Shown one piece after another: positions 33,720 to 64,000 of a stretch of DNA of 64,000 nucleotides (within the stretch, counting starts at the first letter, position 1; every line of letters begins with the position of its first letter). Position numbers and translations under genes: made by a program. This DNA is from a virus (Duplodnaviria > Caudoviricetes). A model generated the notes under the pieces. It worked only from the letters and a program-made list of their open reading frames with translations, ran no database searches and was not told the origin of the DNA. The stretch is from positions 32,001 through 96,000 of the IMG/VR virus record IMGVR_UViG_3300013121_000047. The stretch is one strand, 5' to 3'.

Positions 33720-36050
33720 TTAGAATGTCAGTTGAACTTTGTACAAAATAGCATCGCCAGTTTTTTTAATATTTGGTTGCGCTAGCGTAGCTCGACTAAC
33801 AACATTTAAATTATCATCATGTAATAATACCTCACCTATTAGAGTATATTGTGTGTCGTGTTCGTTTTTATTTGAGGTTGCTTTGAGTGCGCTTGACCAG
33901 GAATTATTGCTTGACGATGTATGCTCTAGTGGTCTAGCATAACAATCAATCGTGGTTGTGTAAATGCTAGAGTTTCCCTTGAACGTTATTTTGTACTGCG
34001 ATGCTCCCAACCAGAACAATGTAGGATTTTTAATTAGCACGACTCCTTCGTTGTAGAATATATTCCCGACTGAGTTCCAAGTAGCATTATTTTCGATTGA
34101 GTTTGCTCGATATAAATTTCCTCTACCATCATCTTTCAGAGTTATTGTCACCTTTTGATCTGAGCCTGAAATAGCAGAATCTGTCAATGTAAACGTATTA
34201 GGTTCGATTCTTGTTCCGTAAAACAAGTTTGAAATTTCAAAAATCTTTATATTATTTGAAGAAGGATCTCTAGTTTTTTGCAGAATAGATGGAACAACTA
34301 AAGGGGTTTCATTTAGTGAACTTGTTATTGTCGGATCTGGGCCAACTATTCTATATCCAATAGATGATGTTAAACCATTGTATTGTATGGAAGGTATCCA
34401 CGAAGAAGATATAACTTCTGATAAGTTCACATAGCTGTAATCAGAAGTTATATCATTTCTAAAAAATGAACTTGATAAAGATTCTAACCAAGCAAAATTT
34501 GGAATAAATTTTCCATTATCATTTGGTAAAATTGTTAAATTTCTTTTTAATGCAGACTCAGACAAATATAAAAGCGAATTTGCTGTGGCTGCCGTTGCCG
34601 CAACAATTAAAATTTTAGGAGATAAACCATATAATCTTGGGTATTTGCCTAAAACTAGTTCTCTGGTATGATTTTCTAAATTGATTAAATGTCCACCAAC
34701 CTCAAAAGCAAATTCGGCGCTAAAAGGAGAGTAAGTAGTCCCAGAACGATTATAAAATGGCGTAACTATAATACCGCCATCAAATCCACTTTTGTTTCTA
34801 TATGGACTTTCTTCAGTGAAAAATGGCGGAACATAGAACAATAAACCATCTTCGGTAGTGGATGGCCCAGCGTTGTAAAGATTTTCAATTTCCGTTGTCG
34901 TTAAATATTTGTTAAAAATTTTAATATCATGCAGTTCTGCGTTTAAAGGAAACCTAAAATTAGAAGAAGATGGTTCAGTAAAACCAGAATCGGAATTTAA
35001 TACAACTAAACCATCTTGATATCCTGTATCGTAACCAAAAAATCTAGATGTTCCATTTGATCCACTATTGATTCCTTCATAGTAATTTCCAATAAACAGA
35101 CAATTTGGTCCATCTTGACTAGCAGAGATATAATAGTTTAAGCTAGAAGAAGGTATTACAAATGTACTATCTAAAACGTTATCAATAAGAATTGATCCAC
35201 TTCCTAAACTATATTCAGATGTTCCCCAACGAATTGTAATATTATGCCACGTATCTTTTGATAACGAATTGTCTGAGGTAAACACACAAGTTGTTCCATT
35301 TTCTACAACTTCCGATGGAACCAAACAGGCTTGCTGTTCTAATTGTAAAATAATTCTAAATTTGTCAACATTTCCATTAATGTCTTTACTGGAGCCTGTC
35401 GCTAGAGAAATAGCAATTGCTCCTGAGAAATGTAAAATAGTTCCTGGTTTGTCAAATGCGTAGCGCGGGTTTATCCAAAAATTATAACTAAAAGAGCCTG
35501 TTGGGAAATAAGAAGATGAAAGAATATTTGAACCTGATAATGTTAATTCATTTGGATATATTACAACAGATGAAGTATTAAAATAAGACGAGCTAAAAAA
35601 ATTTAGCGTATTATAATTTGTGTATGCAAAATGAGCTGTTGGATATTCTGGTTTGTAGAAATGATTATAAAGAGAAGATTTAATCATATTTTTTTTATCA
35701 TACTCAATTCCATCTCCGAAATGGGGTGTGTATGACAATATTTCAATCTTTTGTTGATATTTTTGGTTTTGTGGAAGCTCAAAAATATGTTGAATATATG
35801 AGTTTATATATTCACTTTTATTTAAACTAGTTGACGCTTTTGCACGTTTGAGTATGTCATTAATTGAATTAACAGAGCTATTAAATCCAAGTGACTGAGT
35901 TAGATTTACTTTTTCCCTAGAACTTCGTTGATTAAATACATATTTCGAACCAGTTGGACCACTAACCGAAGATGAAATATATGTCACATTTGGATTCAAA
36001 ACTGTCTCGATAATCGAAACATCTTCTTTGTTAATTTTTATGAAACTCAT
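33720..36050 (-). CDS. Baseplate/tail structural protein with LamG-like domain
   Basis: FSYNFWINP, DTWHNITIRW, LFIG, LHDIKIFN; C-terminal IGEVLLHDDNLNVV...AQP motif. Confidence 0.75.
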   Translation of the reverse strand: MSFIKINKEDVSIIETVLNPNVTYISSSVSGPTGSKYVFNQRSSREKVNLTQSLGFNSSVNSINDILKRAKASTSLNKSEYINSYIQHIFELPQNQKYQQKIEILSYTPHFGDGIEYDKKNMIKSSLYNHFYKPEYPTAHFAYTNYNTLNFFSSSYFNTSSVVIYPNELTLSGSNILSSSYFPTGSFSYNFWINPRYAFDKPGTILHFSGAIAISLATGSSKDINGNVDKFRIILQLEQQACLVPSEVVENGTTCVFTSDNSLSKDTWHNITIRWGTSEYSLGSGSILIDNVLDSTFVIPSSSLNYYISASQDGPNCLFIGNYYEGINSGSNGTSRFFGYDTGYQDGLVVLNSDSGFTEPSSSNFRFPLNAELHDIKIFNKYLTTTEIENLYNAGPSTTEDGLLFYVPPFFTEESPYRNKSGFDGGIIVTPFYNRSGTTYSPFSAEFAFEVGGHLINLENHTRELVLGKYPRLYGLSPKILIVAATAATANSLLYLSESALKRNLTILPNDNGKFIPNFAWLESLSSSFFRNDITSDYSYVNLSEVISSSWIPSIQYNGLTSSIGYRIVGPDPTITSSLNETPLVVPSILQKTRDPSSNNIKIFEISNLFYGTRIEPNTFTLTDSAISGSDQKVTITLKDDGRGNLYRANSIENNATWNSVGNIFYNEGVVLIKNPTLFWLGASQYKITFKGNSSIYTTTIDCYARPLEHTSSSNNSWSSALKATSNKNEHDTQYTLIGEVLLHDDNLNVVSRATLAQPNIKKTGDAILYKVQLTF

Positions 36051-36118
36051 TGCACTTAAATATCAATTAAATATATTTGGTATATTATTGAACATATAGA
36101 ATACCAAAATATAATAAA

Positions 36119-37261
36119 TTAATAATCTATTCTAGCTGTAAGCTGCATACTTCTTGTCGCGTCTTTGTAAACTGGTCGGTTTGTTTTACCAATTGCCAAC
36201 AAGTTATTGTTTGCGTCATAAAATCCAACTGAAGTAAACATTACGAATGATTTTTGAATATCTTCTTGTCCTTGTTCGATAACAACAATTTTTCCATTTG
36301 AATCAACATAAGATGGATTTGAGGAATAGTTGAAATTACGATATGGAAGTTGGACTGTTATATATGATGTATTCAACAGTGTTTGGTTTTGGAAAGCTAA
36401 TGCCGTGCCAGACGACGACCCAAAACGAGTTGAGGCAACGTGATCGATAAAATCGTCAACCGACGCACTAACCATCAACTGATTAAAAGTTCCAGAAAAA
36501 CTATTAGAACCCCCAGCTGCTACTGAATCAATTGTCCCAGATATAGATTCCGTAACATTGAAAATTCTCTGTGTATCTAAAACAACAATACCGCTATCTA
36601 GATACAGTAATCCTACTGGATAACTTGTGTTGCTACTATCTACGATTGTGGAATATGCTCCACCAAATCCAAATTCTTGATTTGTTGACGATCCTACATC
36701 TGAATATATTTTTTCACCAGATGCCGCCCCACTTATATAATTTGAGGAAGTTAAAAATTTTATTACAAAAGTTTCACGCTTAAATCTGTCTCTATGAAAC
36801 AAACGTTTAAATGCCAAAAATAGAGGTTCTCGAATTGTTATTGTGGAAGCTCCACTTACCACACTGAATTCTGAGTCTGCATTCCCAAGTAATTTTTGAG
36901 CCATTTGTCGGTATCTATCGATTTTTTCTCTCATCATAAGTGACTGAGATGGAAAATATAGCTGACCAGTTGTAGTATCTGTATAAACAAGAGAGCTTGT
37001 TACAAGCGCTGAACTTACAGCTAATCCAAATGTTATATCAAATGTTGGGTTTGCAGTTGGTAATGTAAAATCTTGGTCATAAACTGTTTGATATAAACTA
37101 GAAGTCACTCCACTTGAACTTAAAGCACTTGTGACATAGTGTTGATATTTCCTTCTAGAACTTGAAGAAGAAATATCCGACTCTATGAAGTCAATGATCA
37201 TATCAAGTCCATCTGTTGCTGACGTAAAGTCTGAATTTGCTATCTCTTGAAATATTGGCAT
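36119..37261 (-). CDS. Baseplate/tail structural protein
   Basis: VGLLYLDSGIVVL, FNYSSNPSY, TSVGFYDANNNLLAIGKTNRP; paralogous C-terminus to 33720..36050. Confidence 0.75.
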   Translation of the reverse strand: MPIFQEIANSDFTSATDGLDMIIDFIESDISSSSSRRKYQHYVTSALSSSGVTSSLYQTVYDQDFTLPTANPTFDITFGLAVSSALVTSSLVYTDTTTGQLYFPSQSLMMREKIDRYRQMAQKLLGNADSEFSVVSGASTITIREPLFLAFKRLFHRDRFKRETFVIKFLTSSNYISGAASGEKIYSDVGSSTNQEFGFGGAYSTIVDSSNTSYPVGLLYLDSGIVVLDTQRIFNVTESISGTIDSVAAGGSNSFSGTFNQLMVSASVDDFIDHVASTRFGSSSGTALAFQNQTLLNTSYITVQLPYRNFNYSSNPSYVDSNGKIVVIEQGQEDIQKSFVMFTSVGFYDANNNLLAIGKTNRPVYKDATRSMQLTARIDY

Positions 37262-38053: not shown

Positions 38054-39976
38054 TTATTGTTTTTTGAATAAAGAATCAATTTTTCTTTCTACTGTTTCTT
38101 CTGTTTGTAGATTTTCGTTTAAATTAATTCCTTTTATTCTCTCTGCGTTTAAAGATCTTTTAAGTAGAGTTAAATTGAAAGCTGAGTCTATAGGCTCTTT
38201 TATAATATTTTCTGTTTTGTCATTCAATTGTATTGATAATATTTGTTGTTCTGCTATATCTAAATTAATAAACTGTATTTGGTATGAATTTTTTTCACCA
38301 ATAGCCAATAGGTTAAGTTCATTGTCGGTTTTATTATAAAGTTTTAGATATTCTGGATTAAAATATATTTCTACAGCTTGATGATTTTGGTCTCTTATGC
38401 TATCTGTAAAAGCACTCTCATTTAAATAAATATTAGGATAAGATTTCGGGGCACCAGAAACAGAGATCGGTTCAATTTTAACTCTGTTGAAAATTTTATC
38501 AAATTCAACTTTGTATTGTATTGAATAACCAGAAGAAATTCCATGAGCGTCTATTGACGCAAGCGCATAAATTGCCGATTTTTTACTAGAAAAATCGAAA
38601 TCGTAAAAAATTGTTTTTGGACTAGCAAGAACTTCGACTAAAGTTTCCTCAGGAAATTCACCTGAAAGTTCTTTAACCTCAGAATCATCAAAATTATATT
38701 CCCTTAAAAGTTGATAGGGCTCATATAAAGAATAACGTTTAAAAACTTGAAACTTTTTAATATCCATTTGCGTATTCACTGGGAAATTCCATGAAATTTT
38801 CATTCCTTTTTCTTCTGGAATGTATTTGAATGAAATATCTTGCGGTGGAGGAGGAGGAGAAAATTCTTTGCAAAGTATAGCATTCGCTGTTACGGCTCTA
38901 CTTGCAACTAAAATTCCTAGCGCACTTATCAATCCATTTTTTTCATCTACTGCTTCAATTTCAATATAAAAAACTGACCTAATTGAATAGACGTATGTAC
39001 TTCCGTACTTAACTTCAGTGTCAATATACTGAGCTTTATTGGGGTTTTCAACAACAGAAATTGGATATATTATTTGTGAACCATCTGATTTGAGTTCTGT
39101 TTTTTCTATTATATAACCAACTGATTGGACTATGGGTATATGTGTAGTTGAAAATAACACTCTTTGTGTTATGAAATCTTTAATTTCGAAATCAAATTCA
39201 TCTTGGCTTATTAATGTTGAATTGTTTTGTATTTCCGCTTGTTTTTGTATTTTTTTTGCTTCTGAAAGAAAATCCTGAAATTCATCAATTGTCGGATTTA
39301 ATAAGTTCGTGTTAGCATTGTATTCAATAATATCTCCTAACAACTTATTATTTATTTGGATATCGTTTTTTACTTCTCTTAAAAGTTTTATATAATTTTC
39401 AACATCTAATTTTTGACCATCATTTTTGTAAAAATTTAAACCATAGTCTGAATGACTATAACCAGCAGATATTAATTCTGGTTTAACTGTTTGATCAGTG
39501 TTTTTATTTATAGTTTTAACCACTTCTAATAGAGGTTTGTTGGTTTTTTCATTAATACTTTTTAGTAAAGTTTCACAAAAAAGGCGGATTTTCTTTTCTG
39601 GTGATAAATCTTGAATTTCTAAAACGCTGTAATTGTCATAACTAAAATCATCTTCGTAGTAGATTTGCTTTAAATTATTTTTAATTTTAACGTCTGTTGC
39701 TATTCTTGTGTTGTTTCCTATAATAACTGGTGTCCAATTTAATAAATTATATCTTGGAATTCTTGTATCAAAATCATTTGTTTGTTGAACATCAAAAGTT
39801 TGATCACTTAAATTAACAGAACGAAATCTTTTTGGAATATTTGTGTACAAATAATTTGTACGCTCATCTTTAGTGTAAAAATTATATTGAAATTTTACGT
39901 TAAAATTTGTTGGTTCTTTTACGTCAACTAGTGAAATTTTTTTTGAAGGTAATGTAATTTGTTTTGTATAAGTCAT
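38054..39976 (-). CDS. Structural protein with FN3-like repeats
   Basis: YIDTEVKYGSTYVYSIRS, PPPPPQD, ISWNFP, ASIDAHG. Confidence 0.65.
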   Translation of the reverse strand: MTYTKQITLPSKKISLVDVKEPTNFNVKFQYNFYTKDERTNYLYTNIPKRFRSVNLSDQTFDVQQTNDFDTRIPRYNLLNWTPVIIGNNTRIATDVKIKNNLKQIYYEDDFSYDNYSVLEIQDLSPEKKIRLFCETLLKSINEKTNKPLLEVVKTINKNTDQTVKPELISAGYSHSDYGLNFYKNDGQKLDVENYIKLLREVKNDIQINNKLLGDIIEYNANTNLLNPTIDEFQDFLSEAKKIQKQAEIQNNSTLISQDEFDFEIKDFITQRVLFSTTHIPIVQSVGYIIEKTELKSDGSQIIYPISVVENPNKAQYIDTEVKYGSTYVYSIRSVFYIEIEAVDEKNGLISALGILVASRAVTANAILCKEFSPPPPPQDISFKYIPEEKGMKISWNFPVNTQMDIKKFQVFKRYSLYEPYQLLREYNFDDSEVKELSGEFPEETLVEVLASPKTIFYDFDFSSKKSAIYALASIDAHGISSGYSIQYKVEFDKIFNRVKIEPISVSGAPKSYPNIYLNESAFTDSIRDQNHQAVEIYFNPEYLKLYNKTDNELNLLAIGEKNSYQIQFINLDIAEQQILSIQLNDKTENIIKEPIDSAFNLTLLKRSLNAERIKGINLNENLQTEETVERKIDSLFKKQ

Positions 39977-42900
39977 CCTAAAATCTCCACTGCAACATAA
40001 AATTCATTCATTTCGGTACTATTAAAACTATTAATATATAGTTTATCATTTTTTTTATAAAGTCTATTTTTAATCTGTTCATTTTCCAACACTACTGGAT
40101 TTGTTATTTCAGTATCAATTTCAAATAGGTTTAAATCTATTATGATATTAAAGATTTTATCAAACGTTTTTGGAGAAAAAATTATAGATTTCACGGTTTG
40201 TTTGTTAAGTTCATTAAATACTTTTTTTATTATATCCGCGTTATCTTTTACACTTTGGTTGATAGTTTTATCCGCAATAAGGCTTTCGTAGTTAGTGAAA
40301 CTAATGTTTTGGGTTTGTAAGTATAATCTTAAAAATGAGTTATATTCGTCGGAGACGCTAAAATCATAGTCAGTAAGAGAAAATGCCACCTCGGATAAAT
40401 CCAATCCAGTAGAAAGAATATTGTATTTGTTTAGCAAAAATGATTTTATGGTATTACTAAATAATTCTTCTTTTTGAGTCGGTAACAAAAGCCTATATTT
40501 TTCATTTGACAATATTTCTTGTTTTGATTTTGGAATTAAAGAAACAATATTTTCATCTATAAGCCTTATGAATTTATTATTATTATCGAATGAATCTATT
40601 GGATCTATAGAAGCGTCTTTCTGATAGTTTGCAACACTTAAATTTAGGTCAAAAAGAAACTTTTGTGGTTTAAAAATTAGCTCTTCATCAAGAAGACTTT
40701 TTCTAAAGACATTTATTGAAATTAAATTATTTTCATTTTTAAAATCAACTACTTGTTCTTGTCCACTTGTAACACTTAATTTGTCTAATCTTTCTTTTAC
40801 ATTATCTATAAACCCATTTGGAATTCCAACACTTATTAGTTTCTGTATTGAATTTGTCTTTTTTAAAGATTCATTTACTACAAAACTTATTAGATGGTAA
40901 TATTCATTATCTTTGATAAGATTAGATAATGTAGATTCTTCTTTTAGTTTTGATAAAAGTTTTTTTGATATCAAATATTGTGAAGGGTTTAACAAACTAG
41001 AATTTTGGTTAATTATTTGTTTTTGAGATTCTGTTAATTTTGAAAAAACATTTTCGGTGTACCTCTTAACTTGGTTAAAATTGAATGATATCGACTCAAA
41101 AATAGCTAGAAGATTTCTTATAAAGAAATCTTCGCCTTGTAATGAATCATATATATTTTTGTATTCGGTATAGTAGTAATCGAATTTTCTTAAATATTCA
41201 TTGTCATCAGACAAATATGTTACATCTGCTGGTAATGTATATTGTCCATTAACCGAATTTGTTCCTTGGGTTAGTGGGATAACTATTTCAGTTTGAAACA
41301 CATTTAAATTTTTTGGTAAACCAGTTAAAAACTTTTCTATTGCTTTTTGAGATGCTTTTAAATGTTTTTGGTTATATAAAATACCAAAAATTTTTCCGTT
41401 ATCGATATCAAATTTTATTGATAAAAATTTTCCTGAAATGCTTGAAATTGTTTCAAATAACAAAAGTAAAATATTTGATAAACTTATGTTTAAATAAGAA
41501 CTTGTTGTCGATACGTCACTGCTAAAAAAGGGAGTCGCCGAAGTGTAAAAAACCGAAGAAATATCTAAAAAATCTTTAAATAGATTTGGTTTGTTTGAAT
41601 TTGTTGCCGTGATTGTATCAGTTAAAACTTTAGAAATTAATGCATTAGTTTGCAAAAATACAGAAGAAAATCCATCATTTCTTGGCGGTGGATTAAAAGA
41701 AGCATCGGTATTTAATTGAAGTGTTGAGTTTTCTGTAAGAATTTTTGTAACATATGATGTTATTAAATTAGCAAGATGTATAGCAACATTTTTTAATGTA
41801 GAACTTTGATCGACATCGTTTGTTAATTCTAAATCAATATTTAAACTTGGGAATGTTTTTAAGGTTTTAAGTTCTGTTTTTAATTTTTTATATAGTTCAA
41901 AATTAGATTCTTTAGTTGCTTTAATCATTCCTAACAATAAAACAAATTGAAACAAATATAGTTTTAAAATTTTATCTGTATTCGAAAGATTTATTAAGGC
42001 TGGAAGTATCAAACTTTCAAATGATGAAGAGTTTGTAGAGCTAACACAATATCCGAGTGTGTTTTTAACAGTTTCAAATATGATTTTTGTGATATTTTGT
42101 GGGATTAAATTAAATCCAAGGTCATTGAAATTAAAAATTTCATTATAAACAGAAACTGTATTTGAAATTTTTGATACAATATCATTCCCAAATGTTAGCA
42201 TAGAGAATGTATCCATATTTTTTATTGTATCATTTTTAAAATAAACATTTCCTGGAATATATTTTGACTCGCCATCATCAACTATTGTATTTTCAAAAGG
42301 GAGGACTTTTATATTAGAGTCTTCGGGAGCCGAAAATAAAAGTGTGCCAGCAATTGTCCCAATACCAATTGGTTGAGTAAAAATATCATTTGGAATAATC
42401 CCAATAATATTATCAAATGGATTGAAATCTAAAAATGATGAAAATTTAGAATCTATTGCAGATTTAACATTTGGTTTATTTAAACCTTTTGAGATTCGTA
42501 AAATCCGACCGAAAACATGTGTTGTAATTTTTATACGTTCTAGCAAATTGTTTGGTAAAGAGTTTAAAAAATTAAAAAAGTTATCTTCATTTAAACTTAA
42601 TTTTGGTAACCCGCCTCTAAGTTTTGTCGATAAGCTATTAATATCAAAATTAAAATTATTTGTTTTTGTATAACTTGTATCTATTTTTACCGAATTAACA
42701 TCATTTACTCTATCCAAATCTGTTAAATTCAGTAAATTTAAGCTGTAATTTTCTGACGCTGCCCTTAAATCAAAAAGCATTTGATAAAGAATTTTAGTAT
42801 CGGAAAATGAATTATAAGAATTTTTTGAGTAGTTCATTTTCTGAATAAAAAACTCTTCAATTGACAAAAGATTATTTATCTTAAAAAAGGACTCATCAAT

Positions 42901-43605
42901 TTCTCTAATTTGAAATGCTTTATCAAAAGATTGAAAAATCGTAATAAAACTTTCTGTTAGTTTCAACTCTTCTTCTTGAACTTTTATAAAATCAGAAAAC
43001 TCTTTAGAAATCCTACTATATTCAGCTTTAGTATTTTCATTCGAAGATAATAGCTGTTTTAAATTTTCAATAGTTTTTTCTCTAAGTTTTAATAACTGAA
43101 ATCTATAGTCGAAAAAGTAGCCTAAGTTATTATATTTTAATATTTTTTGATTTTCGAAGATTGACTTAAAATCAGATAATGAGATAATTTCAGGACGCTG
43201 GCTTGCAAATCCTTTTAAATTAACACTTTTAAACTGCTCATTTGCATATGCGTTTACTGGTAAGCTTAAAACATCAGGTTTAAAATATAGTTTTTCAAAC
43301 AATTTTTGTTTTTCAGTTTTTGGCTTATGAGCTGTTTTTATATTAGGATTTAGTGTTGTCGCAAGGGTATTGCCAGAAAGCGAAAAATTACCCGCTGGTG
43401 TTTTTTTCGCATTTTCAATAAACTGCTTATCTAGAATGATATTTCCAGTAGAATTTAAAATCGTTGCAGACAAAATTGTACCAGGATTTGAAGAGGCAAC
43501 TTGAGAGTTTAGTTCTGTTGGCAAAATTGCTTGTGTATTTAAATTTCCAACGTTTGCATTCTCTTTTCCGCTTCGAATAGGAATTCCTGAATTATTTATA
43601 CCCAT
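39973..43605 (-). CDS. Large hypothetical virion protein
   Basis: 1210 aa ORF in the tail/baseplate module. Confidence 0.65.
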   Translation of the reverse strand: MGINNSGIPIRSGKENANVGNLNTQAILPTELNSQVASSNPGTILSATILNSTGNIILDKQFIENAKKTPAGNFSLSGNTLATTLNPNIKTAHKPKTEKQKLFEKLYFKPDVLSLPVNAYANEQFKSVNLKGFASQRPEIISLSDFKSIFENQKILKYNNLGYFFDYRFQLLKLREKTIENLKQLLSSNENTKAEYSRISKEFSDFIKVQEEELKLTESFITIFQSFDKAFQIREIDESFFKINNLLSIEEFFIQKMNYSKNSYNSFSDTKILYQMLFDLRAASENYSLNLLNLTDLDRVNDVNSVKIDTSYTKTNNFNFDINSLSTKLRGGLPKLSLNEDNFFNFLNSLPNNLLERIKITTHVFGRILRISKGLNKPNVKSAIDSKFSSFLDFNPFDNIIGIIPNDIFTQPIGIGTIAGTLLFSAPEDSNIKVLPFENTIVDDGESKYIPGNVYFKNDTIKNMDTFSMLTFGNDIVSKISNTVSVYNEIFNFNDLGFNLIPQNITKIIFETVKNTLGYCVSSTNSSSFESLILPALINLSNTDKILKLYLFQFVLLLGMIKATKESNFELYKKLKTELKTLKTFPSLNIDLELTNDVDQSSTLKNVAIHLANLITSYVTKILTENSTLQLNTDASFNPPPRNDGFSSVFLQTNALISKVLTDTITATNSNKPNLFKDFLDISSVFYTSATPFFSSDVSTTSSYLNISLSNILLLLFETISSISGKFLSIKFDIDNGKIFGILYNQKHLKASQKAIEKFLTGLPKNLNVFQTEIVIPLTQGTNSVNGQYTLPADVTYLSDDNEYLRKFDYYYTEYKNIYDSLQGEDFFIRNLLAIFESISFNFNQVKRYTENVFSKLTESQKQIINQNSSLLNPSQYLISKKLLSKLKEESTLSNLIKDNEYYHLISFVVNESLKKTNSIQKLISVGIPNGFIDNVKERLDKLSVTSGQEQVVDFKNENNLISINVFRKSLLDEELIFKPQKFLFDLNLSVANYQKDASIDPIDSFDNNNKFIRLIDENIVSLIPKSKQEILSNEKYRLLLPTQKEELFSNTIKSFLLNKYNILSTGLDLSEVAFSLTDYDFSVSDEYNSFLRLYLQTQNISFTNYESLIADKTINQSVKDNADIIKKVFNELNKQTVKSIIFSPKTFDKIFNIIIDLNLFEIDTEITNPVVLENEQIKNRLYKKNDKLYINSFNSTEMNEFYVAVEILG

Positions 43606-43609
43606 ATTA

Positions 43610-53900: not shown

Positions 53901-54268
53901 AAAGAGTCTACGAAATTTTCATAGTCTTTTTTTGTTCCGTCAAATGGAAACTTATTTATAATTGTTTTAAAAGCTTCGTTTGTTTTAACTCTTGCAGAAT
54001 TAAAAAAAACATGTTCAGATAAATTTGACCAATCAACATTTAATTGCTGTGTAGAACGAATCCCAGACTCAAAAGGGTCATATCTATACGAAGATGTTGA
54101 GGCAACACTAATATTATCATCTAATAAAAACTGTTGATAAGTTGTACCACTGTTACTACTTTCATCATACGTTTTTGTATCAAAAAAATTAGGTTTTAAA
54201 GTAACCAATATGTTAGCGTTATTTTTGGACATATCACAATTATAGATATTTCCATATATTACTTTCAA
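50906..54268 (-). CDS. Baseplate wedge-like protein with two LamG-like domains
   Basis: IENWIY, WNHICYVW, IDELRIW, LYYKFNE; gp7-like ILNSKGTRHSI; second LamG-like GKISQIKFW. Confidence 0.75.
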   Translation of the reverse strand: MKVIYGNIYNCDMSKNNANILVTLKPNFFDTKTYDESSNSGTTYQQFLLDDNISVASTSSYRYDPFESGIRSTQQLNVDWSNLSEHVFFNSARVKTNEAFKTIINKFPFDGTKKDYENFVDSLSGYQKYILNEFPYNFGYFYSEGNGFITTKDYSGIGDLEISINKSGLSILNPTNSIDLSIENWIYLPTGSNSNQIILQKASGSHGINLWSSASAATTSCSIGLTINSGSFSLNLSNSIEKGLWNHICYVWNRSDGENKIEFYLNGYKQATSQKIEIKDLDINNANLTIFSGSSFSNNGATFIPTSVLTGGIDELRIWHKKLDENFIVNNNKRNVFQNSDLKLYYKFNEPENTTKNIILDYSSNNLFGAFQSRSFSTSSYGTSPLIYEQPELNPILFSNIESVSTLRSLLLTTASLYDSENPSLITNLIPPHYFMEGQNQADSGTEDGDIVDTISGSLPKTVELGSTQTLNSLLFATADFFDEIQIFIKEFGNLIHVEYDDNKIISDYFLNFLAKRYGISLPNFFPNSDIDQFLYGNNIDSEYSSNLGISLKEIQNKIWRRILVNANDILNSKGTRHSINLFLRSIGIEPYSFFKVKEYGGPIQRKLNSSYEVRQEQFNFLSFNSSSSVSSSFLSSSRVEPGYPQIAGISSDGFLTSGSWTFEGFYILSGNISTTQSLARLSTFCTASNKEATLFNLSTNGNSLILKGLPNSNFSIDQSMSLSLTGSFNLFNNEPWYISFGRQRADSILNNSSLSSSYFIRIGKQLQGQVIEYYSKSLWYDDAQGSVNTNLLSNKPISSSFVSSGLYLCFGSASFTGSLLSSSSITNYFDGKISQIKFWSKDITESETLEHIRNPKSIGTDNPLINNQFERVQSGSFEKIRAIVDMDQVTSWSNSNGNITLADFSQNNLHFYGYGFATSSLVFEKRNIRFGSLASSFDEAITENKVRVRSLQSVLNYSDPFIESAPVYELQMDEQPADTTKVSIDFSPVNVLNDDIVNMFGSYEILNDILGDPSNLYSTEYPDFETLRRLYFDRLTSPMNLKAYFEFYKWFNSTLSNFITSLLSKNVKFKGINYIIQPHLLERSKVQYMSYNQYLNRTNVASNSNQLLNQLINGVIKKF

Positions 54269-55842
54269 ACAACTTTAAATCTATAACCTAAATTTTTAAA
54301 GTAAATAGAATTATCTGAACTTGAGTTTTTCATAAATTCAAATTCATAAACTTTATTTTTTATTAAATTGTTCATATCCATATTAAAATATAATCCATTG
54401 TTATCATAAGATAGTTTAGTTGCTGAACTTTCTGTTGTAAATGGAATAACTTCATCTTTGGTATACGCATCTAATACTCTATAATATACGTCTTTACTTA
54501 AAAGTTGTTGTGAAGTTTCAAAACGAGAAAATTTAGTTATAGAACTAGGATTATTTGTTAACAAAACATCAAACCTTACCTGTTGTTGATTTCTATATTC
54601 TTGTTTGAAATTTAAAATTGAGAGAATCAGCGCGTTATCAATCGATCCACCAGAAAAAGTAGAATAGTTTTTAAATTTAAGCATAGGCCCTGCACTAAGC
54701 AGAATTTGACCGTCAGTAGATTTCCAGTATTGATTAAAATAAATTTCTTGTAGACTATTCGAATGGAAAGAAACAAACTCGGAACTATTATAGTCGATAT
54801 TTGCGGTGGAAAAATAGCTACCAGTTTGGTATTTTCCACCAATGCTAAGTTGAGAACCAGAGAATGACTGACTGTAATAAACTATTGACCTAGTATTATA
54901 CGATATACTTTTAGAGTGCGAGGTACTAAAAGAAGTTGTTGTATATGAAATTGATCTAGACGTTATGAGTGTTAATAGTAAACAATTAGACCCTGTTAGT
55001 TCGCTAGCACCAGAAATAAAATTTGAATATGACTCAAATTTCTTATTTTTAATACCAATTTTGTTTGCAAAGTTGAAATATAATTCAGTGTTGTTTTCGA
55101 AGTTCGTGTTATCAAATAGGCAGACTAACTTTGGTTGATATTTTTCTTTGTTTATATGTCTAGATGCAAATCTTTTTACAAAATATGTTTCTGTTCCGTT
55201 TTCAATTGAGGCAGAAAGTGCTATTCGAAATCCATTGTTTTGAATTTGACCAGAAAAAACAGCAGAAACAAATGGTGTAATTTCAGTGTATAAATCTTCG
55301 TCTCCCGATTCAAAAGTTACCTGTTTTTCAAAATTTGTATAAAAGTCAACGTTAGAATCTCCCAAGGCTCCACTTGCATTTGCTCCGCTTACAGACCATG
55401 TAGCAAAAGAGCTTCCATTTTTACTGGAAGTAAGCCAATTAACTGAATCTAAGTCTCTATATTCGATTACATCAAATCCTATTCCTTCAGAAAAACTTTT
55501 GGCAAGCGGATTAACTGTAATAGTAAAATTTGATGGTGTTTGATCTCCGCCATAAATATTTTTTAGTGATAAATAAACTTTAAATGTTGGATCTGTAAAA
55601 TCTAAATAAGAACTCGTTAGGGTCTGTAAGCTAGACAAATCAAAATAAATGAGTCCACGCGAAGATTCTTTCAAGCTTTGACTTAGTGCAGAACCAGTGA
55701 GGCCGCTAACAGCTGTTTCATTGTATAGATAATAAATATCCAAAGAGGAAGCTAATCCAGTATTTGAACGAATTTGTCTCTCACTGTTAATCCACTTGTT
55801 TTGTATATATGCATCTTTTGAAGCTTTTATGATTTTATACAT
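54265..55842 (-). CDS. Structural protein with DNRLRE-like domain
   Basis: ASKDAYI, SRGLIYFDLS, ITPFV, NNGFRI, FASR...PKL. Confidence 0.6.
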   Translation of the reverse strand: MYKIIKASKDAYIQNKWINSERQIRSNTGLASSLDIYYLYNETAVSGLTGSALSQSLKESSRGLIYFDLSSLQTLTSSYLDFTDPTFKVYLSLKNIYGGDQTPSNFTITVNPLAKSFSEGIGFDVIEYRDLDSVNWLTSSKNGSSFATWSVSGANASGALGDSNVDFYTNFEKQVTFESGDEDLYTEITPFVSAVFSGQIQNNGFRIALSASIENGTETYFVKRFASRHINKEKYQPKLVCLFDNTNFENNTELYFNFANKIGIKNKKFESYSNFISGASELTGSNCLLLTLITSRSISYTTTSFSTSHSKSISYNTRSIVYYSQSFSGSQLSIGGKYQTGSYFSTANIDYNSSEFVSFHSNSLQEIYFNQYWKSTDGQILLSAGPMLKFKNYSTFSGGSIDNALILSILNFKQEYRNQQQVRFDVLLTNNPSSITKFSRFETSQQLLSKDVYYRVLDAYTKDEVIPFTTESSATKLSYDNNGLYFNMDMNNLIKNKVYEFEFMKNSSSDNSIYFKNLGYRFKVV

Positions 55843-55844: not shown

Positions 55845-57695
55845 TTAAATTGCCGATCCTAAAATATCGTTAGTTTTATACTTTAATTCAAATATTCCAC
55901 CATTCGGAGGAAGAATAATGTTTTTCTTTGTATTTGCATCAAAATTATATGAAACGTTACTATAAGTTCTATCTCCAATCGTACCAGACAAGTTTGAAAA
56001 TTTTATATATTCCAAAGATAAAACACCTACATTATTATAAATAATATTAGTAATCTCAGAAATGTTGATAGGCTGATCAATTTGAAAATTATCAACATTG
56101 AAATATTTTTCAATTTTTTTGTTAATATTTTGGATTATGATTTGTTTATTTTGATTTTTAGCAATATGGACTTGATATTCAATCTTGAAATTTAAAATTT
56201 GTGCGTCTAAAATGTCAAACGAATCTGGGATTACTCTAAATTCATTTAGATATTTGCTTAAATTTTGTTTTAAAGTATCGTTACTTACTGTTAGTGTATT
56301 ATCTGAAGCTTTTGATATGACATATAACAGTGATGAATTATTATTCCATGGATTCGTTCTAATCCCAACTCTAAAAACTCTCCCAAATGAAGATGGCATA
56401 GTATATACTCTTGCAATAACATCTCTGATTTCAACTACTCTCGACTGTGCGGCAGCGAATGCTGGTATAAATGTTTTCAATTCATCAATAGTTAAAGCAT
56501 CAAGACCACCAGAAGCATCTTTTAAATTGTAAACCTTAATCGAATTTTTTACATAATTGGCATTTTCTCTAGAAATAGTTTCTGGAAAATTAATATATAA
56601 AGTATCAACGTTGTTAGATATTGAGTTTGAATTAACATTATGTCTTAAGCCCCCACCATATCGATAAGTTATTGTTACTGTACTATTTGGAACAACTGTC
56701 CCAAGTGTATTAGTTGAAAGTAAATTGTTTGGATTTAATGTTATGCGACCAAATGTTTGTTTTCCATATAAGGGCAAAGCAAATTTTGAAGGTTCTGGGA
56801 TTAAGTCATTATCTGTTGTTGCCGCACTTCCTCCGCCAAAGCGCAATGTAACTAATCCAGTTGACAAACTATTTTGTTTTGTAAACCTATACGGCGCAGC
56901 CTTTAAAAACAACGAGCTTTCAGATTCATCGCTATCACTCTGCAAATTTTCTTGTTTTAAAAACACCGTATCGTTCGCTAAATTTTCGACTTCGTAATAT
57001 TCGTTTCCTTCATTATCCACAACACTGATAATATCGGTTACGTTTTCATATGATAAAGTATATGTTTTAAATGGTTCAAATCCATTAAAAGTAAAAGAGT
57101 CAACAGCAGTTTGGCCAGAGATACATATCTCTGATAATTTCATTGAAAAAAATGTTGGATTATTGCTACTATCTCGCTGGGACACTTCAATAGTCGCTTT
57201 ATATTGATTATTTTTATCTTTTTTTGAAAAGTCTACATTTTTAGTTAAATTAAAAACAATTCCTTGTTTACTTGTTAAAATAGTGCCCTCATCTATTCGT
57301 ATTAAACAGGTTTCATCAACAGAATATCCAAGATTTGATCTAACCGCAGGTACTTCAATTTCAAATGTCACCTCTACAACAGAAGGAGTAGCACCAGTCA
57401 TAGGCACTCTATTATCTCTTAAATGTCTTTCAATATTCCTTGGTTCTACAGCTGTTTCTGGAGAAAGTTCATGAAATTGATGGTCCAAATAAAAAGATTG
57501 CGTGTCTCCAACCATTGAAACAACATCTAAAAACATTCCCATAAAACTCCCAATCGATAAATCTTTTATTTTATCAGAATAATATGTTCTGATATGTTTT
57601 TCCATTTCATTTCTGAATCCTTGGAAATCTTTATTTAAATACGAACGCGCAATAACCTGTTTTAAAACTTCTTTTTTTGATAGATCAGATGACAT
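55845..57695 (-). CDS. Baseplate wedge subunit, T4 gp6/baseplate J-like
   Basis: SYLNKDFQGFR, LRFGGG, YRYGGG, ASGGLD, QSRVV; adjacent to gp25-like gene. Confidence 0.88.
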   Translation of the reverse strand: MSSDLSKKEVLKQVIARSYLNKDFQGFRNEMEKHIRTYYSDKIKDLSIGSFMGMFLDVVSMVGDTQSFYLDHQFHELSPETAVEPRNIERHLRDNRVPMTGATPSVVEVTFEIEVPAVRSNLGYSVDETCLIRIDEGTILTSKQGIVFNLTKNVDFSKKDKNNQYKATIEVSQRDSSNNPTFFSMKLSEICISGQTAVDSFTFNGFEPFKTYTLSYENVTDIISVVDNEGNEYYEVENLANDTVFLKQENLQSDSDESESSLFLKAAPYRFTKQNSLSTGLVTLRFGGGSAATTDNDLIPEPSKFALPLYGKQTFGRITLNPNNLLSTNTLGTVVPNSTVTITYRYGGGLRHNVNSNSISNNVDTLYINFPETISRENANYVKNSIKVYNLKDASGGLDALTIDELKTFIPAFAAAQSRVVEIRDVIARVYTMPSSFGRVFRVGIRTNPWNNNSSLLYVISKASDNTLTVSNDTLKQNLSKYLNEFRVIPDSFDILDAQILNFKIEYQVHIAKNQNKQIIIQNINKKIEKYFNVDNFQIDQPINISEITNIIYNNVGVLSLEYIKFSNLSGTIGDRTYSNVSYNFDANTKKNIILPPNGGIFELKYKTNDILGSAI

Positions 57696-57709
57696 AACAG
57701 TTCTAAATA

Positions 57710-58177
57710 TTACGTTGTAAATAACTCAATTTTTATAAAAGCATTATAAATTTCTAATTTTGGGACAACGAAATTTATAAGAATGTCAACTTTTGTAACT
57801 GAATCATACGCATTTCTGGTTGCTTTTGAACTAAAACCTTTAAGATCAACATAAGGCATATAATCTCGAACTGCTGTTTTAATTCGAGACTGAACTTCAT
57901 ACTCAAAATTATCTACACTTGAGTAATCAAGCACCACTTCTCTTAAATTTGCACCAAAAAAATAACGTCCAAGTCGTTCGCCGTGGTTTGTTAGCAATAA
58001 ATTTTTTAAATTATCTTTAACAACTTCTGCAATATCGGTTGTCGTTTCAAAAAAAGTTTCACTTGAATCACTAATTGCAAGTGGTGTTAAAATTCCAATA
58101 GGAGTTTCGGAAACAGTAGGATTAGTTAAATTTTTTGTATCATAAATTTTATAGCCAACGTTTTCAAAACTTATCAT
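57710..58177 (-). CDS. Baseplate gp25/GPW-like protein
   Basis: NLKNLLLTNHGER...FGANL...YMPYV. Confidence 0.9.
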   Translation of the reverse strand: MISFENVGYKIYDTKNLTNPTVSETPIGILTPLAISDSSETFFETTTDIAEVVKDNLKNLLLTNHGERLGRYFFGANLREVVLDYSSVDNFEYEVQSRIKTAVRDYMPYVDLKGFSSKATRNAYDSVTKVDILINFVVPKLEIYNAFIKIELFTT

Positions 58178-58432: not shown

Positions 58433-58434
58433 TG

Positions 58435-61264: not shown

Positions 61265-61272
61265 TTTTATTT

Positions 61273-61635: not shown

Positions 61636-61640
61636 AAAAA

Positions 61641-62831
61641 TTATGATAAAAATAATTTATCGTAATGTTTTTTAATAGCTGAAAAAGAATATTTTTCTTT
61701 TATAATTGGTTGTAATTCTTTTGCCCACTGTTTTGGCATTTTACTATCTTGATAAAACTTTTGCATTCTGTATTTAACATCTTTTTCGATTGGGTTTGCC
61801 CATTGTGCCCCTTTCATAAAAATATTAGAATCTAATCTGGATTCATGAACGTCCGCTAGTTCATATTCGAATTTTATCCATTTTCCTAAATTTAAAAATT
61901 CAGTATGAGCAGACCAATTTGTAGCTAAAACAGGCAACCCAGCTGCTGCGGCATTTACCCCAGGAATAAAAAAACCTTCTGCGTGTGTTGGCGCAAGTAA
62001 TCCTTTAATTTTTTCATGATTAAAAAGTGAATAAATTTCTTCACTTGAAAGATTACCATGAACAATTGTTATCCTGGGATCTGTTTCAGAATTATATCCA
62101 AGTTCAAGGAGATATTGTTGAAAAGTTAATGCAGTAATACGTTTATCAATATGATTTGCACGAGCATAACCAGTTTTTAACACTAATCCAATGTTTGGAT
62201 TTCCCTTAAATTCTTCAATAAACCATTTTAAAGCAAATGGTATATTTTTTCTGTCATTAAAAGGATTGTTTCCTGTGACTTGTCCAAACATCAAAAAATT
62301 AAAATCAGCTTCAAGGTTAATTTCAATTGGCCTTACCTCTTTTTCAACTTCAAAAACTGGATCAAAGGATTCTGGAATTACTAAAATATCAGTAATCAGT
62401 TTAATTCCTGTTATTTCTGATGTTTTTAAGAATGTATCTCTTGTAAATTCTGATGGAACAACAACTTTTGACATACAGTTTATGGCACGAATCCAATCGG
62501 GGTTACAAATCGTGGTCTCAACACCAGCGGTAACTCCAATGTTTGTTTTTGCTTTTGATGCATCCCACTCATTTGGAAGTTGAACCTGGACAGATAAATC
62601 AAAAATAGATTTATTATCTTTTTCCGAAACCATGGATTGATAAATCCATCCGATTAATCCATCTTCTTGAGCAGTATCTACAATCGAATAACATTCTCCC
62701 CAAGGAGTCAATTCAAATCTTATATCAAATTTGTCTTGGTTTTCATAAAACCATTTCGCTATTTGTCTGGCGTGAACGCCATAACCCGAAGCAATTGTAA
62801 ATGGACCTCTTAAAAGAACTTTTTTTTTCAT
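61641..62831 (-). CDS. GT-B (GT4-like) glycosyltransferase
   Basis: SGYGVHAR, VVVPSEF, RKNI, HAEGF...GLPVLATNWSAH. Confidence 0.9.
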   Translation of the reverse strand: MKKKVLLRGPFTIASGYGVHARQIAKWFYENQDKFDIRFELTPWGECYSIVDTAQEDGLIGWIYQSMVSEKDNKSIFDLSVQVQLPNEWDASKAKTNIGVTAGVETTICNPDWIRAINCMSKVVVPSEFTRDTFLKTSEITGIKLITDILVIPESFDPVFEVEKEVRPIEINLEADFNFLMFGQVTGNNPFNDRKNIPFALKWFIEEFKGNPNIGLVLKTGYARANHIDKRITALTFQQYLLELGYNSETDPRITIVHGNLSSEEIYSLFNHEKIKGLLAPTHAEGFFIPGVNAAAAGLPVLATNWSAHTEFLNLGKWIKFEYELADVHESRLDSNIFMKGAQWANPIEKDVKYRMQKFYQDSKMPKQWAKELQPIIKEKYSFSAIKKHYDKLFLS

Positions 62832-64000
62832 TTTTTCACCTTTGGTTTATTCATTTGAACTCTTTCGAGTGTTTTCTTTGGAGAGTTAAATTGTATCAAT
62901 CCCCAATTTTTTTCTCGAATATCTTCTCTCCAATTTGTTATGGTTTGTTCTAAGCACTCTATCCATTTATTCATAACAACTTCATAATTGAATTGTTTTT
63001 CCGTATGAGCAAGTGCACGTTGTTTAATTGTTTCTTTTTCTTCTGGTGTGAATTTATAAACTTTATATAAACCTTCTGCCATCTCCTTTTTTGAAAAATG
63101 GTCATCGTAAATATATGGTGTGGCTTGCGAACCAACAAGATATCTTTCAACAGGTTCCAAAGCAACACCGTGTTCATTTCCAAATTCATCAATTATTTGA
63201 TCTGTCATTCCACCAGTTTTTAATGCCACTACTGGTTTGCCGATAGTCAACATTGTTCTAATTGTAAGAGAGAATCCTTCAGCTCTTGATACGTTTACTA
63301 ACGTATCGGCAACATTATAAAGTCGATTCATATCTGGAATATCTATTTGTCCAACAGAAAACATTACTCTATCTGATATTTTCAACATTTCCGCAACAGC
63401 TTCAAGATCAGGTCCTTCTGGATCTTTTGGATTTGTATGCATAACTAAAACAGCATTTCGGTGCCCTTCTTTTTCTTGTAATAAATCAAGAAAAAGTTTA
63501 AAACCATGCAAAACATCGGCTGGCATTTTTCTATGAGCATTTCTATTAACCCATAATGTAACAAACCAATCTTTTCTTTCTTTAAGGGCTTCTGCTTTCA
63601 TAGCGGCAATTTCTTCTTTTGGCAATTCATAATACCAATTTTTGGGGAAAACATGCGGCAGGTAATTTACCTTCGCTGGGAATTTATCTTTTAATAAATT
63701 ATATGTTTTCATTGAAATGCAGTTAATAACTTCCGTACTTTCATAAAAGGCGGAGTTGTACTCAGGATATGGATCATTGTCCCAAACATGCCAATACACA
63801 ATTGGACAAATTTGATTTATCTCATCTTCCATTTGCCAAACCCAAATGAATTGTCTAGGGTCGGTAAATAAGACTAAAACATCTGGCCGTTCCGTGATTA
63901 AAAGTTGTCGTAAAAGATTTGGCGTCCCAAATCCATCAACAGGTTTAACAACGATGTCTGGGTGCAATGTTTGTACGTCATAGTTTGGATGTTTCATAGC
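62828..64000 (-). CDS. GT-B (GT4-like) glycosyltransferase, probably 5'-truncated by the window edge
   Basis: TDPR, NRNAHRK, YNVAD, SRAEGF...GKPVV; frame open to the window end. Confidence 0.9.
   Translation of the reverse strand, partial: AMKHPNYDVQTLHPDIVVKPVDGFGTPNLLRQLLITERPDVLVLFTDPRQFIWVWQMEDEINQICPIVYWHVWDNDPYPEYNSAFYESTEVINCISMKTYNLLKDKFPAKVNYLPHVFPKNWYYELPKEEIAAMKAEALKERKDWFVTLWVNRNAHRKMPADVLHGFKLFLDLLQEKEGHRNAVLVMHTNPKDPEGPDLEAVAEMLKISDRVMFSVGQIDIPDMNRLYNVADTLVNVSRAEGFSLTIRTMLTIGKPVVALKTGGMTDQIIDEFGNEHGVALEPVERYLVGSQATPYIYDDHFSKKEMAEGLYKVYKFTPEEKETIKQRALAHTEKQFNYEVVMNKWIECLEQTITNWREDIREKNWGLIQFNSPKKTLERVQMNKPKVKK

Follow-up and report, generated by a model that had tools for sequence, protein, structure and literature searches.

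A serine motif and an adjacent glycosyltransferase pair that may mark the outer virion proteins of a large T4-like phage clade

The window, meaning the whole 64,000-nucleotide stretch of DNA analysed here, which comes from a giant T4-like phage, carries a baseplate module in which several proteins are packed with the tripeptide [ST][GAS]S, and two GT4-like glycosyltransferase genes do lie on the same strand at 61641-63997, as a preliminary description of this DNA had stated. The locus raises the question of whether the phage decorates its own particle, and at which residues. The motif proves to be ordered, under selection as protein sequence, limited to certain virion proteins and present clade-wide. 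Comparison among genomes suggests, moreover, that it is probably a sugar-attachment site on the phage's own particle.

The motif in outer and inner virion proteins

Motif counts were scored protein by protein against 500 global shuffles. Six outer baseplate or fibre proteins of the window stood above them, with the motif at 2-4 times its frequency in composition-preserving shuffles (Table 1), which bears out the earlier impression of dense motifs in the baseplate proteins; a sheath protein encoded elsewhere in the genome shows the same 2-4-fold excess. Density within the window is highest in the 776-aa protein, whose LamG-like domain matches PF13385 at 4.2e-05, under the cut-off, and the corresponding match in the 1120-aa protein reaches 1e-14 over residues 177-325. 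When a hydrophobic residue is required before the motif, z rises to 3.7 for the 525-aa protein, and the 442-aa protein has 6 copies of this form vs 1.1 (z 4.9). The 561-aa protein has neither a Pfam nor a PHROG match, the PHROG search having returned nothing for any of the motif-rich proteins, and the 380-aa protein is common to Rhodothermus phage RM378, where a weak homolog lies at 116276-117526. A trio of paralogs at 23217-24456, for which the motif had also been claimed, does contain it, at only a marginal excess (6 vs 2.4, pooled).

Table 1. Features of the window, with [ST][GAS]S motifs counted against those expected from shuffles
Feature	Coordinates	Strand	Motifs vs expected	z	Remarks
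776-aa protein with LamG-like domain	33720..36050	(-)	20 vs 4.8	7.4
380-aa motif-rich protein	36119..37261	(-)	9 vs 3.6	2.8
Three large proteins (640, 1210, 797 aa) in the module	38054..46003	(-)	0, 2, 0 vs 0.9, 3.3, 1.9
442-aa motif-rich protein	47014..48342	(-)	8 vs 3.1	2.7
561-aa motif-rich protein	48343..50028	(-)	9 vs 3.3	3.0
1120-aa outer baseplate protein, LamG/ConA-like domain	50906..54268	(-)	24 vs 7.4	5.8
525-aa outer baseplate protein, beta-sandwich domains	54265..55842	(-)	8 vs 4.4	1.7
Inner baseplate wedge proteins: gp6-like (616 aa) and gp25-like (155 aa)	55845..58177	(-)	0, 0 vs 1.7, 0.3		Weak matches to PF04865 and PF04965
GT-B, second GT-B-fold glycosyltransferase	61641..62831	(-)			Overlaps GT-A by ATGA
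GT-A, GT-B-fold (GT4-like) glycosyltransferase, first gene of pair	62828..63997	(-)			Pfam and PHROG matches

When eight rich proteins were pooled, 99 motifs were counted where 12-residue local shuffles gave 45 (z 8.5). The motif in this pool is directional, with T-x-S found 34 times vs 15 for S-x-T (15 expected each) and TSS 15 times vs 2 for SST, and copies with a hydrophobic residue on both flanks number 29 vs 5.3 expected (z 10.5). Since these eight proteins had been picked by motif count, the test was redone on sets fixed beforehand, consisting, for other phages, of all proteins encoded downstream of their gp6-like gene. The hydrophobic-flanked form again exceeded expectation, at 49 vs 4.4 (z 24) in Flavobacterium phage immuto and 17 vs 3.2 in Microcystis phage Mel-JY01. 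When all 8000 tripeptides were ranked without prior selection in 153 non-redundant outer proteins of relatives (98.7 kaa), SGS, TGS, TSS and SAS took ranks 1-4, with z of 37, 23, 17 and 11, respectively; SGS is enriched 4.3-fold and SSS just 1.5-fold. The excess over composition thus held in global shuffles, local shuffles and the tripeptide scan alike, and the preferred flanks extend the motif to [F/W/Y]-[V/L/I/F]-[S/T]-[G>A,S]-S-[W/F/I/L/Y]. Serine codons at the motif follow background usage, which indicates that selection works at the protein level, and 81 of 99 nine-mers are distinct.

Other proteins of the same genome have a different profile. The gp6-like and gp25-like wedge proteins, whose immuto ortholog is annotated as baseplate wedge, serve as motif-free internal controls, and the three large proteins at 38054..46003, for which family searches gave no match, are likewise poor in the motif. 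Portal, terminase, GroEL, the gp6-like and gp25-like proteins and the capsid protein hold 0-4 copies each, which is the chance level and agrees with the scarcity noted before in portal, terminase and GroEL; the capsid-type proteins are not enriched (4 vs 2.7 in the one of 633 aa, 0 vs 1.8 in the one of 650 aa). A genome-wide scan found no enriched protein beyond the outer baseplate, fibre and sheath set, and no avoidance of the motif was found in the other 208 proteins of the genome.

Position on the folds and conservation among relatives

AF2 models were obtained for the 525-aa protein (pLDDT 75), in which Foldseek recognized macroglobulin/FN3-like arrays and one CBM-like domain, and for the 1120-aa protein (pLDDT 69). 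Loops hold 72% of the confidently modelled motifs vs 46% of the background, and a strand end lies within 2 residues of 36% of motifs vs 16-18%. In the LamG domain of the 1120-aa protein, for example, SGS gives a two-residue hairpin turn at 203 and another at 229. Some motifs fall inside strands or helices, and the contexts are mixed (helix caps, loops, strands). In the sheath, none of the 19 motifs falls within the part that corresponds by homology to the C-terminal core of T4 gp18. Overall, the motifs prefer strand-flanked turns and outer sheath domains over conserved inner cores, and, judging from secondary structure and from substitutions, they would be exposed to solvent.

Nearly all of the approximately 100 IMG/VR loci scored are motif-positive; four tips with a weak signal (L064, L065, L073, L095) are short fragments beside positive sisters and were taken as noise. 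At 30-40% identity, motifs are retained at 0.38 vs 0.10 for control tripeptides. Many motif columns are lineage-specific (25/48 and 81/122), and despite this turnover the counts hold at 7-14 per protein in orthologs of the 525-aa protein and 9-26 in those of the 1120-aa protein. No excess was detected in T4, S-PM2, P-SSM2 or phiM12, despite similar serine content, and the motif is therefore not a general trait of T4-type virions. No description of it was found in the literature.

The glycosyltransferase pair and its co-occurrence with the motif

By their sequences, both enzymes are assigned to the GT-B fold/GT4-like group (Pfam Glycos_transf_1 clan). GT-A matches PF13692 (1.9e-09, 38.3 bits, cut-off 27), PF00534 (2.8e-08, 33.9 bits, cut-off 26.4) and phrog_2170 (5.5e-15). 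GT-B matches phrog_2170 over its full length (1.3e-21) and PF00534 under the cut-off (2.5e-4, 21.1 bits), and relatives of GT-B at 45-68% identity have precomputed PF00534/PF13692 matches. Orthologs of GT-A occur in immuto (1e-55), Mel-JY01 (1e-45), the 484-kb phage LR756508 (1e-46) and RM378 (p013, 4.5e-29), and those of GT-B in immuto (1.5e-42), Mel-JY01 (2.8e-40) and, by profile, RM378 (p014, 1.3e-9). The GT-A of one close relative bears an intein at a conserved GT-A site. A search of 5.8 billion proteins with GT-B returned 3070 relatives, all with generic automatic names; comparison with solved structures gave generic GT4 enzymes only, and the chlorovirus glycosyltransferase B736L, at E 0.003-0.009, was too weak a match for use.

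Residues R152, K157, E240-G241 and T261-G262-G263 are kept in 19 orthologs of GT-A, and G16-Y17-G18, R194-K195 and E285-G286 are conserved in GT-B. Both enzymes thus retain Gly-rich or basic phosphate-binding residues and the first Glu of the E-x7-E motif (E240 and E285), which is conserved in at least 95% of orthologs. The second Glu is not among the positions conserved at that level in either, and alignments read by eye place Thr there in the window's GT-A and Asn in its GT-B. From the residues conserved in each, two active enzymes are predicted, and the missing second Glu marks an atypical variant, which does not in itself indicate inactivity.

The two genes are adjacent or overlapping in every case, with a gp26-like baseplate gene on one side and gp25/gp6-like ones on the other; genes for export, a flippase or lipid priming were not found next to them. 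Of the RM378 ORFs, just 16 have homologs in this half-genome, the pair among them, which points to conservation at near-core depth. It occurs together with the motif in G001 (100% complete) and G008 (91%), both of the window lineage, in G047 (100%), and in immuto, Mel-JY01 and RM378, so that 6 of 6 complete or near-complete motif-bearing genomes carry the same adjacent pair. In T4, S-PM2, P-SSM2 and phiM12, both pair and motif are missing. Among genomes complete enough to be judged for GT-B, unlike IMG/VR fragments, motif and pair co-occur perfectly. Two motif-positive genomes without a GT-B match are each 70% complete: G044 has its gp6-like gene ~10 kb from the contig start, with the upstream region cut off (the immuto pair lies 32 kb away), and in G048 a pair spaced as in the complete relative G047 (~98 kb) would lie beyond the contig.

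Only one relative was found to lack one of the glycosyltransferases, and it has lost the motif as well. LR756508 keeps GT-A and is without GT-B and the motif, which means that the pair was not lost as a unit; a second glycosyltransferase of this phage, at 466 kb, was rejected as a GT-B because it resembles none of the GT-A or GT-B orthologs. LR756508 scores negative for the motif, as do its 94%-identical relatives, and 44 of 44 relatives at 39-45% gp6 identity are positive. At columns where 40-100% of those relatives keep the motif, the LR756508 lineage has NQD, KNG, KDP, DDH or DNQ, and its Ser and Thr content is reduced. LR756508 has replaced conserved motifs with ordinary polar loop residues in orthologous proteins, and the folds concerned do not depend on the motif. 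Support for deep nodes in the gp6 tree is low (0.45); the placement of LR756508 among motif-positive relatives is therefore argued from distances and parsimony, and the tree topology is not relied on. The association amounts to about two independent evolutionary events, namely a single gain or shared ancestry uniting RM378 with the aquatic clade and one loss on the LR756508 branch, and further genes may match the same presence pattern. The cultured members have hosts in three phyla, which makes a host enzyme an improbable cause.

Three checks proposed in the preliminary description thus came out on its side: the enrichment exceeds composition, the motifs favour strand-flanked turns and outer domains (with polar residues there in the LR756508 lineage), and the one relative found to lack a glycosyltransferase has lost the motif too. 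The comparative evidence therefore points in its direction, and its interpretation is supported in part.

Competing readings and biological meaning

On balance, we lean slightly towards the motif being an acceptor signal for a phage-encoded serine modification on the outward-facing virion, for which O-glycosylation by GT-A and GT-B is the best candidate. Counting against this reading are the small number of independent events behind the association, the retention of GT-A in LR756508, the three motif-poor large proteins of the same module, the motifs inside strands or helices, the lack of avoidance elsewhere in the proteome and the missing second Glu of both enzymes. The idea that the excess merely follows from Ser/Gly-rich composition, low-complexity runs or a repeat in the DNA is, by comparison, far-fetched. 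The rich proteins do contain 12-15% Ser, and SSS runs are present (e.g., residues 626-636 of the 1120-aa protein), but the excess survives local shuffling, the motif is strongly directional, SSS lags well behind SGS, codons sit at background among diverse nine-mers, and controls of similar Ser content show no excess; the shuffle, direction, codon and control tests have already refuted this idea. An unlikely but more substantial proposal is that the motif is a lineage-specific structural habit, i.e., tight turns between beta-strands in beta-sandwich/LamG-type domains, with unmodified serines and an unrelated enzyme pair. Hydrophobic flanks like those of strand termini, and a gathering at strand ends that includes classic two-residue hairpins, fit a plain turn-forming motif equally well, and by our own reading of the PF13385 match the LamG consensus has Gly-Ser at comparable positions. 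Same-fold orthologs in LR756508, however, carry ordinary polar residues in the motif columns, the motif is lacking in T4, the cyanophages and phiM12, and beta-rich inner proteins (gp6-like, capsid protein) show no excess. Some motif positions are well conserved and the rest of the proteome does not avoid the motif, yet most columns turn over while density is held, the contexts are mixed, and the coincidence with GT-B loss would be left unexplained.

It is also conceivable, albeit rather improbable, that the motif is a genuine recognition or modification signal for something other than these glycosyltransferases, which would then act on another acceptor. Phosphorylation, acylation, another serine modification or assembly-chaperone docking might be involved, and the enzymes might glycosylate DNA, a small molecule or a polymer of the host envelope. 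Their acceptor is putative, LR756508 retains GT-A in the absence of the motif, and phage glycosyltransferases are best known for DNA modification (PMC12619734, PMC13326640). Like the T4 alpha/beta-GT and arabinosyl-5hoC systems (PMC13326640), these are GT-B-fold enzymes encoded by T4-like phages. The known pathways of phage DNA glycosylation, however, need a ThyA-family base hydroxymethylase or hydroxylase as their starting point (PMC13326640), and searches detected PF00303 in G000, G001 and immuto but in neither of the pair-bearing Mel-JY01 and RM378; nor was a homolog of the pair found in T4. The lack of adjoining export, flippase or lipid-priming genes, the position of the pair within the baseplate operon, and the joint loss of GT-B and motif also argue against a different acceptor.

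Under the favoured reading of serine O-glycosylation, the translationally coupled enzymes would probably be produced from the baseplate operon late in infection of the host, in its cytoplasm and at the same time as their substrates, and would modify outer baseplate proteins, fibres and outer sheath domains. As both keep catalytic signatures, they probably divide the work into priming of the serine and extension of the sugar, or else act as a complex; GT-B would be the better candidate for the motif-linked step. For the earlier proposal of an O-glycosylation sequon on the exposed virion, the comparative evidence agrees, while glycosylation itself, and enzyme action on the motif serines, we infer from co-occurrence only. 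The sugar added would have a putative role in shielding, stability or host recognition, and a "glycan shield" is pure conjecture.

Known systems offer partial parallels. Mycobacteriophages Che8, Corndog and Myrna exhibit virion glycosylation (Freeman et al. 2023, Cell Host Microbe 31:1216, via PMC12619734), with glycans placed, in that secondary account, at the C-termini of capsid and tail-tube subunits (PMC12619734). In both cases, glycosyltransferases encoded by the phage are the proposed source of a surface glycan layer on its structural proteins; the present genome has the same combination of phage glycosyltransferase genes and structural proteins with candidate acceptor regions. The candidate sites here differ from the mycobacteriophage ones in forming a short internal motif across folded baseplate, fibre and sheath domains, the capsid not being enriched, and the phages here are T4-like myoviruses that infect Gram-negative bacteria and cyanobacteria. 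A tblastn search of a phage collection detected no match to the two enzymes in mycobacteriophage genomes. GtfA/GtfB, the priming complex for serine-rich-repeat adhesins of Gram-positive bacteria, is likewise an adjacent GT-B-type duo, which adds the first sugar to Ser/Thr of a surface protein in the cytoplasm before exit and forms a conserved core beside which further glycosyltransferases vary (PMC6973325). DUF1975 is the defining domain of GtfA and GtfB, the latter being a chaperone without catalytic function (PMC6973325); both phage proteins, in contrast, retain catalytic signatures, and neither has a Pfam match to DUF1975 at E<=0.01. The adhesin substrates are, moreover, long low-complexity Ser repeats, unlike the discrete hexapeptide in folded domains seen here. 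The O-glycosylation system of Bacteroidota, which is periplasmic, lipid-linked and host-encoded, uses the sequon D-(S/T)-(A/I/L/V/M/T). It resembles the present case in having a three-residue, Ser/Thr-centred sequon on many unrelated surface proteins served by one general system; the sequon is a different one, and the system here would be encoded by the phage and act in soluble form in the cytoplasm, in a clade whose hosts belong to at least three phyla.

The broadest form of the proposal, which we regard as evenly poised, is that sequon-directed cytoplasmic O-glycosylation coats tail, baseplate, fibre and sheath domains throughout a very large aquatic and thermophilic T4-like clade (hundreds of gp6-like loci, >3000 GT-B clusters, hosts in at least three phyla). 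Such a system would consist of a two-glycosyltransferase cassette and a turn sequon, hydrophobic-hydrophobic-[S/T]-[G/A/S]-S-hydrophobic, and would be old enough to be common to RM378 and dispensable enough for one loss with wholesale sequon erasure. To our knowledge, chemical documentation of virion glycosylation by phage enzymes is limited to a few mycobacteriophages and comes with no defined short sequon. The idea can be put to the test directly in three cultured phages (immuto, Mel-JY01, RM378), with the LR756508 lineage as a natural negative control. If correct, it would add a soluble, sequon-directed O-glycosyltransferase pair for folded beta-sandwich turns, with possible use in glyco-engineering. 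If the motif is indeed where the acceptor lies, the sugar-coated proteins and residues of a very abundant group of environmental phages could be predicted by a simple sequence rule, and this would bear on their host recognition, their resistance to proteases and grazing, and their persistence in water.

Motif excess and consensus

Six proteins, among them those that the preliminary description had singled out as packed with the tripeptide [ST][GAS]S, do carry 2-4 times too many copies relative to composition-preserving shuffles; the other clear motif-rich cases in a genome-wide scan were a tail sheath of 1014 aa and a protein of 435 aa, both outside the window. Across the genome's remaining 208 proteins, neither excess nor avoidance is seen. 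When the motif-rich proteins were pooled and shuffled inside 12-residue blocks, 99 motifs were observed versus 45 expected (z 8.5); as the excess persists under this treatment, local Ser-richness does not explain it. The pooled motif is directional, with T-x-S outnumbering S-x-T by 34 to 15 (15 expected for each) and TSS outnumbering SST by 15 to 2, and the form flanked by hydrophobic residues on both sides occurs 29 times versus 5.3 expected. All six Ser codons encode the motif serines at background frequencies, and 81 of the 99 nine-mers around the motif are distinct, so the excess arises at the level of the protein.

Because this motif-rich set was selected by motif count, testing was done on sets fixed beforehand, comprising all proteins downstream of the gene for the gp6-like baseplate wedge protein in other phages. 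Flanked motifs numbered 49 versus 4.4 expected (z 24) in Flavobacterium phage immuto and 17 versus 3.2 in Microcystis phage Mel-JY01, with T-x-S again exceeding S-x-T (52 versus 20 and 29 versus 11, respectively), and an excess was found in nearly all of the ~100 IMG/VR loci scored (gp6 identity 30-48%). When all 8000 tripeptides were scored across 153 non-redundant proteins (98.7 kaa), SGS (4.3-fold, z 37), TGS (3.6-fold, z 23), TSS, and SAS took the first four ranks in that order; TAS was likewise high and SSS just 1.5-fold enriched. The consensus from 1409 instances is [F/W/Y]-[V/L/I/F]-[S/T]-[G/A/S]-S-[W/F/I/L/Y], with charged residues excluded at -2, -1, and +3 and Pro excluded at +3. Neither periodic spacing nor extended similarity was detected around these instances, so the motif is not a repeated homologous module. 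Cys is enriched 2.4-3.7-fold at -4 and -3 and ~2-fold at +4 to +7 in the same 153 proteins (loci L017-L096).

Structural position and turnover

The expected preference for turns is seen in AF2 models of two proteins: the 525-aa protein (pLDDT 75), an array of beta-sandwiches in which one domain is CBM-like, and the 1120-aa LamG protein (pLDDT 69). Of the 25 motifs in confidently modelled regions, loops hold 72% (background 46%); 36% are in loops and no more than two residues away from the end of a strand (background 16-18%), among them two-residue hairpins of the LamG domain. A few fall within helices or strands.

Two adjacent tail-sheath paralogs of ~1000 aa each, 30% identical to one another, are both much longer than T4 gp18 at the N-terminus and in the middle, and the first is motif-rich (13 versus 5 expected). 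None of the 19 motifs of the two falls within the C-terminal stretch of ~300 residues aligned to T4 gp18 residues 344-653, which form the conserved inner core of gp18.

The glycosyltransferase pair and its distribution

The source of the window is an uncultured giant T4-like phage. The window covers bases 32001-96000 of a 185-kb contig of 51% completeness (CheckV) with a GC content near 30%, and a 74-88% identical relative has a 391-kb genome with terminal repeats. A single minus-strand operon spans bases 33720-64000, and its gene order, together with a gp26-like hub gene immediately upstream of the window edge, places both glycosyltransferase genes, GT-A and GT-B, within the baseplate cluster. 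The middle of the fibre module encodes three large proteins (640, 1210, and 797 aa) of low Gly content, nearly devoid of motifs and without a Pfam or PHROG match.

Features discussed (window coordinates unless a record or locus is named; operon genes in order of transcription)
Feature	Coordinates	Strand
GT-A	62828-63997	-
GT-B	61641-62831	-
Three small ORFs		-
532-aa protein		-
gp25-like, then gp6-like	55845-58177	-
Twelve outer proteins (next three rows included)		-
525-aa protein	54265-55842	-
1120-aa LamG protein	50906-54268	-
Three large proteins, middle of fibre module	38054-46003	-
Sheath paralogs (outside window)	G000 19489-22533 and 22636-25644 (L108:7489-13644)	
GT-A ortholog with intein	L001:4560-7226	+
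Mel-JY01 GT-A ortholog	PP395634 83663-84899	
RM378 p124	NC_004735 112985-114136	
phiM12 outer baseplate and fibre proteins	KF381361, L107:21778-34935	

By sequence, GT-A is clearly a predicted GT-B/GT4-type enzyme and GT-B a more divergent predicted one, with no detectable similarity between the two. Catalytic signatures are kept in orthologs of both across 24-54% identity, although in both E-x7-E is missing its second Glu. Without exception the two genes are direct neighbours on the same strand, with at most a very small gap or overlap between them (an ATGA overlap in the window). Immuto, Mel-JY01, Rhodothermus phage RM378 (p013/p014), and the complete IMG/VR genome G047 carry orthologous pairs in conserved order, far from baseplate genes or in unrelated neighbourhoods; in RM378, just 16 ORFs, the pair included, show homology to this half-genome. 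In the 74-88% identical relative, the GT-A ortholog is an 888-aa ORF with an in-frame intein, inserted after about residue 246, right behind the catalytic E-G-F, and carrying a LAGLIDADG homing endonuclease (PF14890 3e-15, PF14528 2e-11); the window copy has no intein. The Mel-JY01 ortholog matches in two pieces, annotated as two 'putative glycosyltransferases', and may be split or frameshifted. RM378 p124, annotated as a UDP-galactopyranose mutase-like gene, might supply an unusual sugar donor in this pair-bearing genome.

The proposed co-occurrence of pair and motif was upheld in six judgeable genomes: G001 and G008 of the window lineage, G047, immuto, Mel-JY01, and RM378, the last with a moderate signal (T-x-S 51 versus S-x-T 23; [ST]GS 42 versus 17). 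Five genomes without an intact pair (T4, S-PM2, P-SSM2, phiM12, and LR756508) all lack the motif excess. About two independent events, not eleven, underlie the association, and deep tree support is low. T4 baseplate, fibre, whisker, and Hoc proteins have 23 motifs versus 25 expected (flanked form, 0 versus 2.2), and outer proteins of the cyanophages S-PM2 and P-SSM2 and of Sinorhizobium phage phiM12 show no excess at similar Ser content. The forward motif has no excess in outer baseplate and fibre proteins of phiM12, where the pattern is reversed (SG[ST] 19 versus 7.5 expected; S[GAS]T 32 versus 15.7, z about 4); this may be a different lineage-specific motif.

Readings of the motif

The uncultured 484-kb phage LR756508 is the sharpest control against the motif being a general way of building such proteins. 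Its gp6-like protein is as near to the clade as that of immuto, and its baseplate region is flat (1 motif versus 1.5 expected); relatives 94% identical to it are motif-negative, while all 44 scored relatives at 39-45% gp6 identity are motif-positive. Where 40-100% of positive relatives have a motif, the LR lineage has NQD, KNG, KDP, DDH, EGS, or DNQ, and its Ser and Thr content is lower too. These replacements indicate that the positions tolerate any polar residue, like exposed loops, and that the serines are dispensable for the fold; judged from these controls, the excess is apparently not just a consequence of how these proteins are built. A lineage-specific turn style, which would account for motifs concentrated in loops, is considered unlikely. 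LR756508 is motif-free despite retaining GT-A and one unrelated glycosyltransferase (a profile search of the whole record found no GT-B), so generic glycosyltransferase content does not predict the motif.

Other roles for the pair can also be weighed. Known routes of phage DNA glycosylation begin with a ThyA-family enzyme (PMC13326640), and its absence from Mel-JY01 and RM378 argues against this role. Genes for export or lipid priming are lacking on either side of the pair. A host enzyme as the cause is argued against by cultured members' hosts, which span three phyla, and it seems rather improbable that the motif serves some other modification or a recognition function. The nearest known system is mycobacteriophage virion glycosylation (PMC12619734) and the nearest mechanistically is the GtfA/GtfB priming pair (PMC6973325); the window system is a member of neither.

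Of the original proposal, then, the motif excess is confirmed and extended to other phages, and glycosylation stands as the best available explanation only, with roughly even chances of being correct. The comparisons made here favour a connection between the motif and this specific glycosyltransferase pair. In ortholog families at 30-40% identity, motifs are retained nearly four times as often as control tripeptides (0.38 versus 0.10), and the majority of motif columns are lineage-specific while the count per protein is kept up. Such retention, with columns turning over at a steady number, would fit selection for many sites.
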